UHGV virus genome: UHGV-0170512 | DNA: 11,320 bases | Direction: 5' to 3' (one strand) | From: a virus | Shown: piece after piece, positions 3,791 to 11,320 of the stretch | How positions within the stretch are numbered: position 1 is the stretch's first letter | Layout of the letters: every line of letters starts with the position of its first letter | Program-made: the position numbers and the translations under genes | Notes under the pieces: model-generated | Database searches by the model: none | Seen by the model: only the letters and a program-made list of their open reading frames with translations | Told to the model about the DNA's origin: nothing

Positions 3791-4141
3791 TTAAGGTTGT
3801 GATTCCGGAGGAGTCTTCAGAGAACCAGTAATTCTTCCTGGTAGCTTTCCTTTGTAGGTTATCCACACATTCTGCGCATCTAAAATTACGGGGCGCTTTT
3901 CCGGCGACTGCTCATCCCCTTCACATAACCCGGCAGCAACATCCAGGAAGACCTGTCTGATGCTCCTTCTGGCTGCTGCCTCATAAAACTCCAGCGCGGC
4001 ACCTTCAACACGGTCCAGCGAGATGTCCAGGTCAAAAATTTCACCGTCAAAGCGTTTTTTGTCCCGTAACGCTACAGTTACCGTAACTTTATTCTCAAAA
4101 TTGCGGATCCCTTTCACAATCAGTTCATAGTTTTGAGTCAT
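3791..4141 (-). CDS. Hypothetical protein between holin and endolysin (YdfR/DUF1327-like by position)
   Basis: 116-aa ORF with good SD (GGAGAG, 8 nt before the ATG at 4141-4139) lying inside the 3' end of the holin gene; 4-nt gap after the holin stop. A small gene (ydfR) occupies the same holin-endolysin slot in the K-12 Qin prophage as I recall; sequence-level family membership is not verified. Confidence 0.55.
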   Translation of the reverse strand: MTQNYELIVKGIRNFENKVTVTVALRDKKRFDGEIFDLDISLDRVEGAALEFYEAAARRSIRQVFLDVAAGLCEGDEQSPEKRPVILDAQNVWITYKGKLPGRITGSLKTPPESQP

Positions 4142-4145
4142 TGAA

Positions 4146-4361
4146 TTACTCTCCCCGTGCCGCCTTACGACGGTCCTCTCTGATTTTGAAATACAGGTTA
4201 GTCAGATATGTCAGCAGCCCAAACAGCAGACTTCCCAGCACGCCTATTGCCGCCCACTGAGACGGGGAAACCCTGTCCAGCAACTGCAGGAACCAGTAGC
4301 CCGTTCCCACCGCTGACGTGGTGTATGACACACCTGTTGTGATTTTTTCCATCTGGTCCAT
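4146..4361 (-). CDS. Pinholin, phage 21 S21-like (class II holin) with dual-start motif
   Basis: Track ORF 4146..4466 trimmed to the internal start [10 protein letters not shown]. The C-terminal two thirds, [51 protein letters not shown], are near-identical to P21 S21 as I recall it; 71 aa. Met1 and Met4 (MDQM) resemble the S21 antiholin/holin dual start. Confidence 0.85.
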
Positions 4362-4510
4362 ACCCCGTCTCCCGTTATCCGGAAGCTGACAACAATAAAA
4401 AAGCCACCAGTTAACTACTGATGGCTCTGATAACTCATGCAAGCGTCTCAGACGACCCACTGACACTACCGGTGAGTTTAACGATACCTTCCATTTGACT
4501 GGCTCACTTT

Positions 4511-4869
4511 TTATGATGATGCCGGTGCATTTATCTCCAGCGCCAGACTTTCTATCTCAACGCCATACGTTGCATTTTTGGTAATATCCGTCAGCGTCAG
4601 TGCATTTAGTCCCACTGCCAGACTGTCTTTTATGGCCTGGAATGCCGGGCCAGTACGATGACGTAGTATCACTCCGGCTCAGTTGCACCACTGACCACCA
4701 CATCACCTTCTGCTGCAATCGCCTGCATCAGGGTATAAGGGGTTATGGCCACCGGACTACCAAACGGCTGCCAGCCCTCTTTCAGTTTATGTGTCAGCTT
4801 TTCCGCAAGATCTGACGGCGGCGCCGCCCTGACAACATCATAGTGTTTAAATGCCATGGTTCTTTCCAC
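4511..4869 (-). pseudogene. DUF1737-like gene (NanS-p N-terminal-domain-like), apparently frameshifted/truncated
   Basis: Track ORF 4669..4869 (66 aa, MERTMAFKHYDVVRAAPPSDLAEKL...) stops at 4669-4671; a second stop-free frame of 55 codons ([55 protein letters not shown]) opens just after a stop at 4679-4681 and runs to 4511, overlapping the first frame in 4669-4678. Consistent with a single indel. The first Met may be the third residue (MAFKHYDVV). Confidence 0.35.
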
Positions 4870-5117: not shown

Positions 5118-5453
5118 ATGAAGTGGATTGTGATTGATACAGTTATCCAGCCATCATGCGGAATATCTTTTTCAGTCATATGGAGTAAAATAAAATTAAT
5201 AATCTGGTATCAATCGGATGCTTTCTTACCTCCTGAAAGTATATTTACACTGACTCACACAGGCATCATGCTCAATAACAAAGTGCTACCTGTAACCATT
5301 TACAACGTAGTACCATTCAATAAAACATTCTGGAATTTAATCAAAAACAGCCAGGAATGCCCTACAAATACAGATAACGTATTGAATGAATGCTTTAATA
5401 ACCGTTGCACTCTGCAAATATGTCCTTATGGACTAAAACAACAAAGTCCATAA
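5118..5453 (+). CDS. Hypothetical 111-aa protein, AT-rich convergent moron ORF
   Basis: Only credible plus-strand ORF in the window. Strong SD AAGGAA 7 nt upstream of the ATG at 5118, preceded by a ~250 bp very AT-rich stretch (4870-5117). Visibly lower GC than the phage backbone; 5 Cys; no recognisable family. Confidence 0.45.
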
Positions 5454-5487
5454 GGAGTTTACTCACATCTGACAAAATCAATATAAA

Positions 5488-5509
5488 CAGCCCCTCCGGA
5501 GAGGGGCTG
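5488..5509 (-). terminator. GC hairpin, likely Rho-independent terminator for minus-strand transcription (possibly also stops the convergent plus-strand ORF)
   Basis: CAGCCCCTC-CGGA-GAGGGGCTG, 9-bp perfect stem; on the minus strand it is followed by TTTATATTGATTTTG. On the plus strand it sits 35 nt after the 5118..5453 stop but has no U-tract. Confidence 0.4.
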
Positions 5510-5900
5510 GAGAGTGGCGCTATGTGCCATTGCATGGTGCCGGGTGCCTCCCGGTGAATTCAGTACCAGCACCTGAATCCGCGATTATCCCATATACCTA
5601 CTCGCTGATTGCCCCTCCGCACAGGGGGATTCACCATGCCAGTTTCTTTTAACAAACTCCCCGCAAACCAGACAACAGTCAACCGCCTGAATTGTGAAGT
5701 ATTTAAAAATTTCTCCCGCTAACTGATACCCGGCTAACAGTCTGGCGTTTTCTTTTTCAGCAACGGAAAAGCAACAACCACCACACCTGCCACCAGCACA
5801 CCGTCAGCCAGCACTGACATTATCCGGCTGCTGCAATGCCATTCACAAAAACAGTAAGCAATCACTTTTTACCGTAACAGGTGATAATCCAGATATGTAT

Positions 5901-6227
5901 CTACCCCAGATGAGTAATCCGAAGTTCATCCATACCACAGGTCCTGGCTATTCTGTTGTACTCCTGAACAAGAGCAAATAATTCTGAATTAGCAACCATG
6001 AACTCATCGCTAACCCTCTGTATAGCATCACTATTCAGAATAATAACGTCTCTTCCCGAAAGACGATCAGGAGTACAAAACAAAACTGTCAAACGGCTGA
6101 AGGCCTTTGCTCGTGCTGCATTGACTATATCAATACGCTGCCTAAGGATGAAACACCCCGACGCCTCATCAATATTCACTCTACCCACACCATATGAATG
6201 ATAAATATTTAATGCTGAAAAAACCAT
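5901..6227 (-). CDS. Hypothetical protein (108 aa from the internal ATG); doubtful
   Basis: Track ORF 5901..6254 starts at TTG; the first ATG is at 6227-6225 (MVFSALNIYH...) with a weak SD. No recognisable motifs; immediately downstream of the tRNA cluster. Confidence 0.25.
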   Translation of the reverse strand: MVFSALNIYHSYGVGRVNIDEASGCFILRQRIDIVNAARAKAFSRLTVLFCTPDRLSGRDVIILNSDAIQRVSDEFMVANSELFALVQEYNRIARTCGMDELRITHLG

Positions 6228-6364
6228 TAGACCGTATAACAAACACTCAATCAATACTTAACAGAACTTTTATTTTTGACAAACATATAATATTTTCAAC
6301 AATATCCTGAGCCAGGTATATTCCAGTATAAGGCTCTGCCGGAAGGAATCTGGAAGAATGAATA

Positions 6365-6441
6365 TGGCGCGTTGTACTGGATTCGAACCACTGACCGATT
6401 GCTTAGAAGGCAATTGCTCTGTCCTGCTGAGCTAACAACGC
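6365..6441 (-). tRNA. tRNA-Arg (anticodon UCU)
   Basis: Minus strand GCGTTGTTAGCTCAGCAGGACAGAGCAATTGCCTTCTAAGCAATCGGTCAGTGGTTCGAATCCAGTACAACGCGCCA: 7-bp acceptor stem, D arm GCTC/GAGC, anticodon loop CTTCTAA, T loop TTCGAAT, encoded CCA. One G:G mismatch in the T stem. Confidence 0.8.
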
Positions 6442-6454
6442 AGAATACCGATAA

Positions 6455-6531
6455 TGGACCACCATCGGGGACCCGAACTCCGCGCAACCAGCTTCGAAAG
6501 CTGGCGCTCTTTCCTGATGAGCTAATGGCGG
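6455..6531 (-). tRNA. tRNA-Arg (anticodon UCG)
   Basis: Minus strand CCGCCATTAGCTCATCAGGAAAGAGCGCCAGCTTTCGAAGCTGGTTGCGCGGAGTTCGGGTCCCCGATGGTGGTCCA: acceptor stem with one G:U pair, perfect anticodon stem CCAGC/GCTGG, loop TTTCGAA, encoded CCA. Non-canonical T loop TTCGGGT (G at position 58) and one A:C mismatch in the T stem. Confidence 0.7.
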
Positions 6532-6538
6532 TATGTGA

Positions 6539-6614
6539 TGGTGGCCCTTGCTGGATTTGAACCAGCGACCTGGCGATTATGAGTCGCTCGCTCTCACCAC
6601 TGAGCTAAAGGGCC
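6539..6614 (-). tRNA. tRNA with CAU anticodon (Ile2-type, ileX-like, or Met)
   Basis: Minus strand GGCCCTTTAGCTCAGTGGTGAGAGCGAGCGACTCATAATCGCCAGGTCGCTGGTTCAAATCCAGCAAGGGCCACCA: perfect acceptor and T stems, anticodon loop CTCATAA; closely resembles the E. coli ileX tRNA as I recall it. Confidence 0.85.
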
Positions 6615-6736
6615 ATATGCGGAATAATACTTATGCCAGTTTAGCTCTGCAATACCCTACCCTGATTAAATCCTGCATATTGGCCTACACATGATAAAAG
6701 AATCTGAGCGGTCAACAGAAAGTTACTCAGGCAATA

Positions 6737-7456
6737 TTAACGAACTCTGACTACATTAATTTCAAAGTCATCAATCTGCCCGCTATTAAGTATAACGAAT
6801 GCAGAACTCCCATTACTGTACGATTTCGATAAAACCAGACGATCATCATAGCGTGCAAGAACGTAATACCAAGTATTCTCATAGTGGATCGTCTGATATT
6901 CCCTCTTAAACTGGGGTTTATACCAACCGGCAATAAGAGAGAATGTCCAGAAATAAATCATGAATCCAGCCATAATAAACTCAATTCGGTGATGGCGAAT
7001 AAAAGACACTTCCGAAAAACATTTGACTGAAATAAGTCTTCTTCCTGACCTGACAAAAAGCGTAATTGTAAAGGCAGCAATAACACAAAAAAACAGCACA
7101 TCTGGCTCAACGTGCTGATGAATTACCGAAAACTCCAGAACAGGCGGAATAAAAAGCAGCAATATTGCCAGAAAAAGTCTGATAAAACTCAAATTCTGTA
7201 TATTGTTTTTTTGTTTTATGCCTAAAAAGAAAACAATACCTACTCCCCATCCAGTAAGGAATATAACGATAACGCTCACAGCATAAAACAAACTTCGGGC
7301 CACATCATCAACGCCAACCCCGACGATCCACCATGGAAAGCCATAGTAAAAGGAAGTCCCCCATCCATAGAAATAAGCGCTTCCCCATCCAAGACAGCCC
7401 ATATAAGCAATAAAAAGTGAAGAGTTCCTCAGCAGAGTGCTGTCATCCATACCCAT
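6737..7456 (-). CDS. Uncharacterised polytopic membrane protein (about 5 predicted TM helices plus ~60-aa C-terminal soluble tail)
   Basis: 239-aa ORF, first gene after the tR'-like terminator. Successive hydrophobic, aromatic-rich segments (FIAYMGCLGWGSAYFYGWG..., LFYAVSVIVIFLTGWGVGIVFFLGI, FIRLFLAILLLFIPPVLEF, VLFFCVIAAFTITLFV, IMAGFMIYFWTFSLIAGWY). Visibly AT-rich. Likely start is the second ATG (7450), with GAGAG 6 nt upstream. Confidence 0.6.
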   Translation of the reverse strand: MGMDDSTLLRNSSLFIAYMGCLGWGSAYFYGWGTSFYYGFPWWIVGVGVDDVARSLFYAVSVIVIFLTGWGVGIVFFLGIKQKNNIQNLSFIRLFLAILLLFIPPVLEFSVIHQHVEPDVLFFCVIAAFTITLFVRSGRRLISVKCFSEVSFIRHHRIEFIMAGFMIYFWTFSLIAGWYKPQFKREYQTIHYENTWYYVLARYDDRLVLSKSYSNGSSAFVILNSGQIDDFEINVVRVR

Positions 7457-7591
7457 CTCTCTAACAATTTTAAAACATCAACTCATCTTACATAACAAAG
7501 GAGATTCCATGCAGTCAAGAGACTTCAGAGCAGGAGAAACTCATTGCGCAATCGCCATCACGTTTAACGTTATGCACCGCTTTCCAGATAT

Positions 7592-7616
7592 AAAAAACCC
7601 GCTCGATGGCGGGCTG
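7592..7616 (-). terminator. tR'-like Rho-independent terminator downstream of Q
   Basis: Minus strand AGCCCGC-CATCGA-GCGGG followed by TTTTTTATATC; about 80-100 nt downstream of the Q stop, as expected for the short pR' transcript of lambdoid phages. Confidence 0.55.
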
Positions 7617-7662
7617 TAAAAATCCTTCTAACGTCAGGCATAAAACGCCCATCGTTAGAGCA

Positions 7663-7690
7663 AATTTACCACAGATTCGGGAAAAATCAA
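7663..7690 (-). promoter_or_regulatory. Candidate late promoter pR' (with presumed qut region)
   Basis: Minus strand TTGATT-16 nt-TAAATT with TGG immediately upstream of the -10 (extended -10-like), directly after the Q stop codon (7696). Confidence 0.35.
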
Positions 7691-7695
7691 CAACA

Positions 7696-8517
7696 CTATC
7701 GCGTTACCCTCTTTAACTGCCGCTCCGCCCATGCCTCTTCAATGTCAAACCGAACCACCAACGTATCGTAAAAGCGTTTCACTGATTTTTTCCACGTATC
7801 AAGCGTGATAGCACTCGTCACTTTGCGTATGGCATTAAATGCCTCCGTTGATGGTAGTCTTTCATAGCCCCGACCGCCACAACGCTGGCAGTTCCTGATT
7901 ACAGGCATACCCCGTTTTTCCGACTCTTCACGATGAATGGCAACACCACGCCCACGGCAGTCTTTACAGGCAGTGGAAATCTCCCCCTTCCCTTTACATT
8001 CAGGACAAGAAACTTTCACCACCTCCCGGATTTTTTTCCATTCTTCCCAGTAAGACGGATACACACCTTTCGTACACTTTGCCCATACCGGCGGCTTACC
8101 ATCCGGATACTGGACCTTGTTTGTAAAAACTACGCTTTCAATAAATTTTTCCCCATAGCAACAAGGGCACTGCTTTTTACTCGCTGCGCTGCGGGCATAA
8201 TCCTCAAAAGCGTACGAAGCCATAATGCGCATCACTACCGGTTTTATTTCTGCCGGAAGTTTTCTTAACGCCGCCACGCGATCGCACTGACTTAATGCAT
8301 AATCTGCCAGTAATTCTGTTGCCCGCGCCCTGTCATTCATACTAATACCCATTTTCCCCAGGAACGCAGAAAATCCCATCTCAGCCCGGTTTTGTGTCAT
8401 ACCCTGCGCAGCCATCACATCAGTGATGCTCAGCGCATCTTTTGACGTCGAGACGGATGCATCAGTCAGGCCTGGCGATTTTGGGGAATAGTATTTCGGT
8501 AAATCTTCCAGTCTCAT
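7696..8517 (-). CDS. Q-like late antiterminator (QuuQ-type, zinc-finger Cys pairs)
   Basis: 273-aa ORF with several CxxC pairs (CPCC, CPEC, CKDC, CQRC); positioned after rusA and before a promoter-terminator pair and the lysis genes, the canonical Q position. ATG overlaps the rusA stop (ATGA). Confidence 0.6.
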   Translation of the reverse strand: MRLEDLPKYYSPKSPGLTDASVSTSKDALSITDVMAAQGMTQNRAEMGFSAFLGKMGISMNDRARATELLADYALSQCDRVAALRKLPAEIKPVVMRIMASYAFEDYARSAASKKQCPCCYGEKFIESVVFTNKVQYPDGKPPVWAKCTKGVYPSYWEEWKKIREVVKVSCPECKGKGEISTACKDCRGRGVAIHREESEKRGMPVIRNCQRCGGRGYERLPSTEAFNAIRKVTSAITLDTWKKSVKRFYDTLVVRFDIEEAWAERQLKRVTR

Positions 8518-8888
8518 TTTTGGACCTGCCCGTCATGCATTATTTCGTAAATCTTCACGCCCAACCGACCACCAGGAACGAGCTGACCGCGCACAATATT
8601 GATTTCATCAAACTGCTCGTCGTCTATAAGTAGTCCGGCATGCGTCAGCGCATCCAGTGGTGCTTTCAGGATATTGTCCAGGTCACGACGGCGCTTATCC
8701 GGTGGCTCTGCAATCACCTTTATCGCCAGCCTTCCGGACAGGCTTAATTTCAGCTGCTGCTGGCGAACAATAAGCGCCACAGCCCGGCGATAACGCTTTC
8801 CCTCCTCCGAGATAAAATATGTGCTGCCACGGCGTCGCCAGTAAGTGTTCACCGTCGGCGGGTAAGGTAAAACCAAATCTATGAGCAT
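8514..8888 (-). CDS. rusA: RusA Holliday-junction resolvase
   Basis: 124 aa; PPTVNTYWRR... and DKRRRDLDNILKAPLDALTHAGLLIDDEQ parallel E. coli RusA (PPSNNRYYRH..., [30 protein letters not shown]). Strong SD (AGAGGTGA) upstream. Confidence 0.85.
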   Translation of the reverse strand: MLIDLVLPYPPTVNTYWRRRGSTYFISEEGKRYRRAVALIVRQQQLKLSLSGRLAIKVIAEPPDKRRRDLDNILKAPLDALTHAGLLIDDEQFDEINIVRGQLVPGGRLGVKIYEIMHDGQVQK

Positions 8889-10397: not shown

Positions 10398-10553
10398 TTA
10401 CTCCTCAGGTTCGTAAGCTGTGAAGACAGCGACCTCCGTCTGGCCGGTTCGGATTCGTACCTCGCAGAGGTCTTTCCTCGTTACCAGTGCCGTCACTATG
10501 ACGGTTAAACAGATGACGATCAGGGCGATTAACATCGCCTTTTGCTGCTTCAT
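10398..10553 (-). CDS. hok: Hok-family type I toxin (HokD/RelF-like), 51 aa
   Basis: Hand-translated, below the ORF-track size cutoff: MKQQKAMLIALIVICLTVIVTALVTRKDLCEVRIRTGQTEVAVFTAYEPEE. Single TM segment and Hok/Gef signature; SD AGGAGAAG 6 nt upstream of the ATG. Confidence 0.85.
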   Translation of the reverse strand: MKQQKAMLIALIVICLTVIVTALVTRKDLCEVRIRTGQTEVAVFTAYEPEE

Positions 10554-10789
10554 AGCCTGCTTCTCCTTGACCTTTCGGTCCGTAAGAGGCTAATCTCTAT
10601 GTGTCGCATAGATATGGCCTCAGATTAATGTTAAGCGTCTTGCAGGACGCGTAATGTTAACTGGGGCTTTTCTCTATCTGCCTTTTGGTGTTCATGCCTG
10701 AGGCAGATAGCCTCAAGCACCCGCAGCAATTCTACTTAACTCACGTCACCTCGCCAATATGAAATCAATCAGAAAGGTGATCCATAAAA

Positions 10790-11320
10790 TCACTCCTTCT
10801 CTTCTTTTCCGTAGTGGAGTTGGCCAATTTTGATAAGAGGGCGCCCCTGAGATTTGCGGTGTAGATTGGTATCGCGCAGAGAATACACACAGCCACAATA
10901 TTCCTGCTGATAGAATTTTTCGCGCTTGCTGATTTCAATCATACGGGACGAGCCGCCCTGCTTGCGCCAGTTATAATCCCAGTACACCATACCCGGATAA
11001 TGCGCAACAGCTCGCCGCCCACACTCGTTAACCTGCTGCATATTTTTCCAGCGTGAAATGCCCAGTGAACTGCTGATCACACTGAAACCATTTTCAGCAG
11101 CGTACAACGCTGTCCGCTCAAAACGCATGTCAAAACACATGGTACAACGGATCCCCCTCTCAGGCTCCCATTCCATTCCTTTGGCACGTTCAAACCAGTT
11201 GTCGGTGTCGTAATCAGCATCGATAAACGGCACGCCGTGTTGTTCAGCAAAGCGAATATTTTCATCCTTACGAATTAAATACTCTTTCTGAGGATGAATG
11301 TTCGGGTTGTAGAAAAAGAT
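10790..11320 (-). CDS. Cys-motif protein, tentatively QueH/DUF208-like (epoxyqueuosine reductase family); 5' end beyond window
   Basis: Track ORF 10790..11233 (GTG) continues stop-free in frame to the window edge (..[42 protein letters not shown]..). Motifs FYNPNIHP, C-x2-C (CTMC) and YCGCVYS match my recollection of DUF208/QueH; the family call is not verified. Confidence 0.5.

Follow-up and report, generated by a model that had tools for sequence, protein, structure and literature searches.

A TfpB/STM1630-family membrane protein gene carried as a moron cassette behind the late terminator of a lambdoid prophage

Introduction

What is a gene for a polytopic membrane protein doing in a lambdoid prophage, as the first reading frame behind the late terminator? 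The question is raised by UHGV virus genome UHGV-0170512, a stretch of 11,320 nucleotides which is called the window in the following and which comprises the late regulatory and lysis region of such a prophage. The open reading frame (ORF) concerned was called at positions 7456..6737 on the minus strand with a length of 239 amino acids. An earlier note, made from the letters of the window, had described its product as an uncharacterised protein with five transmembrane (TM) helices, suggested by its AT-rich composition to be acquired cargo, and transcribed as the first gene of the Q-dependent late transcript.

By sequence comparison the product, far from being an orphan, is a member of Pfam family PF27470 TfpB, known in RefSeq as the 'STM1630 family', and of PHROG 1521. 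Its gene can be described as a moron cassette inserted immediately after the tR'-like terminator, and it is clearly a real gene under purifying selection, more than a chance ORF. As to its role we favour, at about even odds, lysogenic conversion by a non-enzymatic inner membrane protein with a periplasmic domain, which would benefit the bacterial host in animal-associated niches and would be expressed from a promoter of its own, boosted by late transcription.

A Single-Gene Cassette behind tR'

Between the stop codon of the antiterminator gene Q at position 7696 and the ORF a pR'-like promoter and a tR'-like hairpin are found, which is the expected pR'/tR' arrangement. In the annotation of phage 434 a terminator is marked at the equivalent place, and the leader RNA of the window folds strongly (z = -4.95). 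The position assigned to the gene in the earlier note, first after a tR'-like terminator and in front of the tRNAs, is thus correct. A sister prophage (L023) contains Q, pR', and tR' sequences nearly identical to those of the window, but diverges immediately after the T-run of the terminator, reaches tRNA-Ile about 45 nucleotides past this T-run, and resumes homology to the window about 20 nucleotides before tRNA-Ile. Because precisely a block of about 950 bp is missing from this prophage while Q, pR', and tR' are shared, the ORF together with its leader and 3' untranslated region can be taken as a moron cassette with the ORF as sole gene. The gene-less arrangement, in which tR' is followed by the tRNAs, is shared by many E. 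coli genomes. With 39.4% the GC content of the ORF is lower than that of Q (48.8%), of the lysis genes (50.6%), and of the neighbours overall (48.8-52.3%), so that both composition (39% against about 50%) and the missing block bear out the idea of AT-rich acquired cargo.

Homology to prophages with different Q genes (CFE299 and 434) starts exactly at the tR' hairpin. In the CFE299 prophage (L019) the family gene is located between two tR'-like hairpins at 3839-3859 and 4745-4765, 906 nucleotides apart, and since the hairpin occurs again behind the gene there, the sequences suggest that the terminator served as the recombination joint of the cassette. Like the lambdoid morons, for which lambda bor and lom and the stx cargo are examples, the cassette is an optional and compositionally deviant insert between genes which are neighbours in sister phages. 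A promoter of its own is probable, and it lies within the cargo hotspot from Q to lysis which is also used by stx, LT-II (type II heat-labile enterotoxin), and tRNAs. It differs from them in that Bor and Lom are outer membrane proteins with no sequence relationship to the ORF product, and in that the cassette has no terminator of its own in the window.

Within the leader of 145 nucleotides only 35 of 116 columns are invariant among five diverged sequences. The two longest invariant runs, CTTGAC and TTTGTTATG, are 14 columns apart and belong to a promoter-like element (Table 1) which lies 66 to 68 nucleotides upstream of the ATG in the window, L019, 434, 2B8, EDL933, E. albertii, Escherichia sp. 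L007, L005, and an enterotoxigenic E. coli (ETEC) plasmid. The position is kept despite unrelated upstream flanks, as seen in the ETEC plasmid and at a chromosomal site in Escherichia sp. L007. As far as can be judged from this conservation the element is probably the cassette's own promoter, so that expression would not be purely Q-dependent. Of the proposed Q-dependent late transcript the location downstream of Q and of pR'/tR' is retained, and the description is probably incomplete in view of the conserved element and of STM1630, the non-phage relative from Salmonella, which has its own promoter (PMC6785131 Text S1). A terminator-like hairpin, a 9-bp stem followed by T7, was also noticed inside the ORF in the part encoding the variable loop 3/TM4 region, and transcripts without Q modification could be truncated there.

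Start Codon and Selective Constraint

The second ATG (position 7450), yielding a protein of 237 amino acids, is the likelier start, because it is used by RefSeq WP_000342820.1, because nearly all homologues align from it, and because a GAGAG Shine-Dalgarno sequence at 7461-7457 is spaced 6 nucleotides from it. Aromatic residues account for 47 and glycines for 17 of the 237 positions. The protein collection contained 96 homologues at E<=1e-3. Pairwise ratios of nonsynonymous to synonymous substitution rates (dN/dS) were 0.05-0.21 in every pair with unsaturated dS, the N-terminal 80 residues being the most constrained part (0.06-0.12). Between Salmonella subspecies, where the position adjacent to sseJ is kept, values of 0.05-0.07 were obtained. 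An intact reading frame is kept in Enterobacterales, Pasteurellaceae, Neisseria, and Moraxella alike. A plus-strand ORF of 60 amino acids at 7437-7619 is probably spurious.

Membership in the TfpB/STM1630 Family

The copy of Pfam which was scanned directly does not contain PF27470, and membership rests on the precomputed annotation of a cluster: the exact 237 amino acid protein is contained in the 90% cluster of P0003, which carries PF27470 and whose members are 88-98% identical. The same annotation is found on P0001 and P0002 (97-98% identical) and on all other listed homologues. RefSeq uses the name 'STM1630 family protein' for alleles which are 89-90% identical at the DNA level, and PHROG 1521, a family of unknown function, matched with E=6.5e-86 (residues 19-239 against positions 1-221 of a profile of 222). 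The earlier note had named a confident match to a known family as a finding that would tell against an uncharacterised protein. With PF27470 and PHROG 1521 such a match formally exists, but the family has no assigned function, so that 'uncharacterised' remains true.

P0159 is 48% identical to the ORF product over 100% of its length, and it can be identified as STM1630 of Salmonella Typhimurium since it adjoins sseJ and since a published STM1630 deletion primer encodes its N-terminal peptide NSSMLLAYLGGLGWG. STM1630 has 238 amino acids and the same architecture, and like the ORF it is an AT-rich, horizontally acquired single gene adjoining virulence cargo. It differs in being chromosomal, next to sseJ and outside any prophage, and in having its own H-NS-silenced promoter, induced in conditions inducing Salmonella pathogenicity island 2 (SPI-2); the leader with TTGAC-N18-TATG, which the phage copies from E. 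coli have, is missing from it. Relatives in the same genomic position are gp68 of phage 434, annotated as 'putative membrane protein' (CPT_434_68), and WP_001302581.1 of EDL933, which are 57% identical to the ORF product, follow Q and a terminator in the same order, and carry the same conserved leader element. In contrast to the window, their Q is of the Q82-like type, and their downstream cargo is DUF3927 followed by a SASA/NanS-p-type esterase (434) or a DUF6645 protein (EDL933) in place of tRNAs. In the central part of the protein, TM3-TM4, they have diverged strongly from the ORF product (dN 0.59).

The name-giving member of the family is the Moraxella 'protein tfpB' (P0305). Aligned to the profile of the window subfamily by hhalign it yielded a probability of 99.5% and E=4.5e-23 over 228 columns with 26% identity, that is, homology over the full length, and it has the motifs AYxYGWG...YGYPWW...ARSL and YYIL in common with the ORF product. 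It is longer (261 amino acids), and its gene is located outside phages within a type IV pilin cluster of the Moraxellaceae chromosome. We know of no function assigned to Moraxella tfpB in the Moraxella literature of the 1990s. Alignments and the structural model described below yield a common architecture for the family of about 230-260 amino acids, with an N-terminal TM hairpin rich in aromatic residues and glycine, five TM helices in all, and a C-terminal beta-domain with the motif YY(V/I)L. This is a small family, which makes up 69 clusters at 50% identity in a collection of 1.84 billion representatives, and its named members are from animal-associated Proteobacteria (Enterobacterales, Pasteurellaceae, Neisseria, and Moraxella).

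Other searches returned nothing that would place the protein elsewhere. No match was obtained in the Pfam-A copy lacking PF27470, whether with the complete protein, with each domain by itself, or with three distant relatives, nor in the NCBIfam scan, nor with the holin families of Pfam, nor by a PDB sequence search with the single protein and the family profile even at E<=10. The Foldseek comparison of a predicted model, proposed in the earlier note as a check, was run against BFVD and gave no match at E<=0.001. The note's suggestion of abortive infection found no backing either, as the PADLOC models showed no credible homology to abortive infection or other defence proteins. A match to AbiC (14.8 bits, E=0.0037, covering one TM stretch), found in only 2 of 37 family members, was discarded as an artefact of TM composition. 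Literature under the name tfpB is dominated by unrelated uses (chemistry, anaesthesia nerve block, and an Acinetobacter PilB-like ATPase), and a literature search for DUF3927/TciB yielded nothing relevant.

Predicted Architecture of the Protein

An AlphaFold2 model was built from an alignment of 37 sequences (pLDDT 82.6, pTM 0.75). Hydropathy and this model agree on five long helices followed by a five-stranded C-terminal beta-domain at about residues 183-235, in line with the earlier description as an aromatic- and glycine-rich polytopic protein with a soluble tail of about 60 amino acids. The membrane domain contains a stripe of small residues in TM1 (G21/A25/G29/S33/G37, spaced i+4), a GxxxG motif in TM2, a conserved YYGFPWW loop which is predicted to be periplasmic, and a DDVARS motif. 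The TM1 stripe and the TM2 motif suggest typical surfaces for helix packing or oligomerisation.

In the family mean, the loops 78-91 and 135-157 contain 3.7 and 3.6 lysines plus arginines, respectively, against 0.08 in loop 33-50 and 0.9 in loop 111-117. Because of these two positively charged loops the positive-inside rule predicts an N-terminus inside and a C-terminus outside, from which we infer that the N-terminus and loops 2 and 4 are cytoplasmic while the YYGFPWW loop and the C-terminal beta-domain face the periplasm. The predicted periplasmic location of the C-terminus would hold even if the weakly hydrophobic TM1 did not span the membrane. Only G175 and Y195 are invariant throughout the family, the near-invariant positions being A, Y, G, P, and F, and the family alignment contains no conserved set of acidic, basic, or histidine/cysteine residues. 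An enzyme or an ion-coupled transporter is therefore unlikely.

Distribution and Genomic Contexts

At the level of megablast 375 of 5426 complete E. coli genomes match the gene, and at the level of blastn 1197 (about 22%). A locus search with a narrow alignment returned only 6 species-representative loci. A comparison with 50,697 deposited phage genomes gave matches in 434 and 2B8 only. Contrary to what the earlier note had implied, the gene is not new at its late-operon site, since the gene of phage 434 occupies the same position. The statement that nothing was known at this site in Shiga toxin (Stx) phages agrees with the deposited phage genomes, but not with a prophage of Enterobacter cloacae (L028 2162-7017) in which the order is Q, stx1A, stx1B, the family gene, and lysozyme/lysis. 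Similarly, in a Cronobacter-labelled prophage of the type II ETEC-like kind (L029 1070-8369), Q is followed by LT-IIA/B, a fragment of Q, a terminator, the family gene, a pertussis-like S2S3/S1 pair, holins, and endolysin. In EDL933 the gene lies between Q and a series of DUF3927, DUF6645 protein, and holin genes. In 434B, a derivative of phage 434, the region from Q to lysis including the gene is replaced by DLP12 DNA. Since 434B, which was propagated and purified as a clear-plaque phage (PMC9119081), still grows, the gene is dispensable for phage growth.

Several copies are found apart from phages. The ETEC plasmid pUMNK88_Ent (L020 1982-4709) carries a 77% identical gene with the leader element about 870 bp from eltA and divergent to eltAB, which encode the type I heat-labile enterotoxin (LT-I). 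This arrangement is a hint that a lambdoid late region was once a station of the plasmid LT-I locus. Remnants of insertion sequences (IS) surround this copy, and estB is located 3 kb away. Matches occur in 106 Shigella plasmid records with intact copies, of which pWR100 was the one examined. Three Salmonella subspecies and C. rodentium have a copy at a syntenic chromosomal site; frmA, a gene for a methyl-accepting chemotaxis protein, and a LysR gene are common to the C. rodentium (L027) and Salmonella (L011) sites, and the upstream neighbour differs, being a split lpxR in C. rodentium and sseJ in Salmonella. LpxR is encoded near Q in phage 434 as well. Lone copies amid housekeeping genes, at different sites, are present in Avibacterium, Mannheimia, H. 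ducreyi, and Neisseria, and Moraxella tfpB is flanked by pilin genes. Linkage to pilin or type IV pilus genes was found only in Moraxella, and neither in the window nor in the enterobacterial, Pasteurellaceae, or Neisseria loci.

No partner gene is conserved across the loci examined, and therefore the protein would act alone or together with a universal host component. The recurrent adjacency to toxin and effector genes is most simply read as a shared use of the cargo hotspot from Q to lysis, the order and orientation of the family gene relative to the toxins being variable. Disrupted copies are common: these include insertions of IS1 or IS903B, the frameshifted proteins P0072, P0075, and P0093, fragment PHROGs, and a frameshifted pseudogene which together with a tRNA-Arg is found beside the iro genes of E. 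coli 536.

Published Work on STM1630

Experimental data on a member of the family are available for STM1630. It was described as a gene of unknown function which is bound by H-NS and has its own promoter, with expression in SPI-2-inducing medium and within macrophages. Attenuation of mutants was reported for calf and chick models, and a deletion in strain 4/74 led to increased replication in macrophages. Invasive ST313 has a mutated, inactivated promoter, and S. Typhi lacks the gene (all from PMC6785131 Text S1). It also clusters with genes co-regulated with SPI-2 (PMC2639726).

Possible Functions

According to the explanation given an even chance above, a self-contained cassette of leader with promoter-like element and gene is inserted just after tR'. 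In the lysogen this element would probably drive weak transcription of the gene, and after induction strong Q-antiterminated read-through from pR' across tR' would follow. The protein resides in the inner membrane, with five TM helices, a cytoplasmic N-terminus, and a small periplasmic beta-domain predicted, and would most likely act through contacts with proteins or with the envelope rather than as an enzyme or transporter. An envelope-associated function beneficial to the host in animal-associated niches would explain the survival of the gene under purifying selection outside phages. The copies in Shigella, in ETEC, at the sseJ/lpxR site, and alone at housekeeping sites, together with the phenotypes of STM1630, make a role on the side of the host the most likely one.

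A number of observations speak against this explanation. No function has been demonstrated for any member of the family, and the position as first ORF of the late operon suits a function in the lytic cycle equally well. The topology is predicted from the positive-inside rule and the AlphaFold2 model; TM1 is weakly hydrophobic, and three lysine or arginine residues follow TM5. The -10 region of the promoter-like element is without the canonical T at -7, a consensus promoter scan did not report the element, and it is absent from the Shigella and Salmonella copies. The stretch of the window from the stop codon (6737) to the tRNA (6614) contains no terminator-like site. Deletion of STM1630 caused no growth defect in LB (PMC6785131 Text S1), and hypermotility, which had been reported for STM1630 (PMC4219756), was dropped here as it is not among the phenotypes confirmed with clean deletions (PMC4534456).

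Among the alternatives, superinfection exclusion or another kind of anti-phage defence, in which an inner membrane protein of the lysogen blocks incoming DNA at the cytoplasmic membrane or otherwise excludes phages, is considered possible but unlikely. It would fit a polytopic protein without catalytic signature, encoded by a prophage moron with a promoter likely to be active in the lysogen, dispensable for the phage as seen with 434B (PMC9119081), and persisting by itself, in the manner of exclusion proteins encoded by one gene. P22 SieA, T4 Imm, and HK97 gp15 are likewise small inner membrane proteins of phages or prophages which act alone and non-enzymatically, a functional analogy only, as homology to them was not detected and as the ORF family evolves slowly and is retained vertically in Salmonella. 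Long vertical retention with the low dN/dS found there and SPI-2-type regulation (PMC2639726) are atypical of arms-race genes, the non-phage copies are located amid housekeeping genes and not in defence islands, and PADLOC contributed nothing credible beyond the AbiC artefact. A lytic-cycle accessory, which would tune lysis or late membrane physiology as a holin- or antiholin-like oligomer or would protect the energised membrane until the holin is triggered, is suggested by the place of the gene as first ORF after pR'/tR', co-oriented with the lysis cassette, and by the potential packing or oligomerisation surfaces of TM1 and TM2. We regard it as very unlikely, given that 434B grows without the gene (PMC9119081), that it is missing from sister prophages whose Q and lysis genes are the same, that the window has a holin of its own while the ORF matches no holin family, and that members far from any lysis genes are under purifying selection.

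The neighbours of family genes outside the window invite two further proposals. An accessory factor for surface or periplasmic export, serving type IV pili or the release of AB5 toxins, would make sense of the pilin genes around Moraxella tfpB, of the adjacency to stx1AB, to LT-II and pertussis-like toxin genes, and to eltAB, and of the beta-domain predicted to lie in the periplasm. It is highly improbable nevertheless, since the window contains no toxin or pilin genes near the ORF, most family members have neither, and the adjacency to toxins with its varying order and orientation is explained by the hotspot between Q and lysis. Somewhat wider in scope, and in our view rather improbable, is a stand-alone envelope factor which is functionally coupled to virulence cargo, that is, to AB5 toxins (Stx1, LT-I, LT-II, and pertussis-like), to type III secretion effectors (sseJ), to the Shigella plasmid pINV, and to Moraxella pilins. 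Such a factor may condition the inner membrane or the periplasm so that virulence proteins of the periplasm and the cell surface can be exported or released, or it may be an anti-virulence modulator which restrains intracellular growth. The disrupted copies listed above, finally, might be taken to mean that the gene is a functionless hitch-hiker, a decaying remnant kept by a recombination hotspot. This is scarcely credible and is largely refuted by the selection analysis, with low dN/dS across all comparisons, and it also conflicts with the frame kept intact from Enterobacterales to Moraxella, with the conserved motifs, and with the phenotypes of STM1630 in vivo. Lysogenic conversion by an inner membrane protein is the explanation we favour.

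The Neighbourhood of the Gene

The DNA of the ORF is 100% identical in extraintestinal pathogenic E. coli strains including IHE3034 and the uropathogenic strain 26-1, and the gene order of the window is that of the annotated IHE3034 locus. It runs from hok/sok through genes for a DUF968 protein, RusA, and Q to the ORF, three tRNAs, small unknown ORFs, an IraM-like gene, DUF1737, an S21-type holin, DUF1327, lysozyme, and Rz. All phage genes are on the minus strand, the IraM-like gene being on the opposite one. Features with their coordinates are compiled in Table 1.

Table 1: Features of the window, with positions, strand, and basis of assignment.
Feature	Positions	Strand	Basis and remarks
Coding sequence, TfpB/STM1630-family protein, 237 amino acids + stop	6737..7450	-	Alternative start 7456 = 239 amino acids
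Membrane domain, residues 1-176	6923..7450	-	Hydropathy; AlphaFold2 helices 4-36, 47-81, 88-111, 116-136, 155-181
C-terminal beta-domain of about 60 amino acids, residues 177-237, predicted periplasmic	6740..6922	-	AlphaFold2 strands 184-190, 193-201, 204-208, 218-222, 231-235
Moron cassette of about 950 bp (leader, coding sequence, 3' untranslated region)	6636..7589	-	Missing from sister prophage L023; GC 39.8%
Putative promoter-like element, TTGACT (7518-7513), 18 nt, TGT-TATGTA (7497-7489)	7489..7518	-	Leader alignment
tR'-like intrinsic terminator, 7-bp GC-rich stem + T-run	7590..7615	-	Stem 7615-7596, 5 GC pairs; left boundary of cassette
pR'-like late promoter, TTGATT, 16 nt, TGG-TAAATT	7663..7690	-	Inferred; below threshold of consensus scan; near-identical block (few substitutions) in gene-less L023
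Terminator-like hairpin inside ORF	7094-7117	-	9-bp stem, then T7
Late antiterminator Q, 273 amino acids	7696..8517	-	PF03589 Antiterm, E=4.9e-52; RefSeq 'antitermination protein' in identical IHE3034 locus
RusA	8514-8888	-	Gene order of window
tRNA cluster Met/Ile2(CAT), Arg(TCG), Arg(TCT), downstream of cassette	6365..6614	-	ARAGORN and Rfam tRNA matches
117 amino acid ORF directly after tRNAs	5901-6254	-	PHROG 2873, E=3.8e-69, unknown function
Small RNA family STnc100, full-length	5479-5668	-	RF02076, 132 bits against gathering score 47
IraM-like anti-adapter gene	5118-5453	+	NCBIfam NF007393, E=4.7e-48; PHROG 4407
S21-type holin	4146-4466	-	PF04971
hok/sok type I toxin-antitoxin module	10398-10722	-	51 amino acid Hok-like ORF 10398-10553; sok antisense RNA RF01794, 108 bits, 10551-10722
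QueH-like ORF	10790-11233	-	Matches 'epoxyqueuosine reductase QueH' gene in early region of related IHE3034 prophage

Besides its PF03589 domain the Q protein contains CXXCXGXG repeats of the DnaJ-type zinc finger (PF00684, with 32.1 bits just below the cut-off of 32.7). The tRNA with the CAT anticodon is annotated as tRNA-Ile by RefSeq in related prophages, and the 117 amino acid ORF behind the tRNAs is at roughly the position which stx occupies in Stx2 phages. A second moron is represented by the IraM-like gene between the tRNAs and the lysis cassette. It runs opposite to the late genes, lies where the window is richest in AT (32-33% GC), and is present in the gene-less sister prophage L023 as well; the small RNA STnc100 is encoded just downstream of the IraM-like region. 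The IHE3034 copy of the Hok-like ORF is named hokD in RefSeq. The QueH-like ORF is a tRNA-modification gene carried as prophage cargo, accompanying the phage tRNA cluster.

Significance

To what extent the gene is an ordinary one can be stated briefly. Already catalogued is that the ORF is an ordinary family member in a typical position, with a relative in the classical laboratory phage 434. Added here are the exact boundaries of the cassette at tR', the conserved promoter-like element, the full-length link between 434 gp68, STM1630, and Moraxella TfpB, and the repeated association with toxins and effectors.

The gene is common, with DNA matches in about 22% of complete E. coli genomes. Phage 434, Shigella pINV, ETEC enterotoxin plasmids, and every Salmonella enterica subspecies that was examined have copies too. 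The gene marks a cargo hotspot downstream of Q which carries Shiga toxin, LT-II, and pertussis-like toxins, and the isolated copies beside eltAB, sseJ, or lpxR hint at a passage of these virulence loci through lambdoid late regions. If the improbable coupling to virulence cargo were true, the gene would be an unrecognised, phage-disseminated virulence accessory in about a fifth of E. coli genomes. In view of the colonisation and macrophage phenotypes of the Salmonella homologue, the function of this family could reveal a widespread form of lysogenic conversion.

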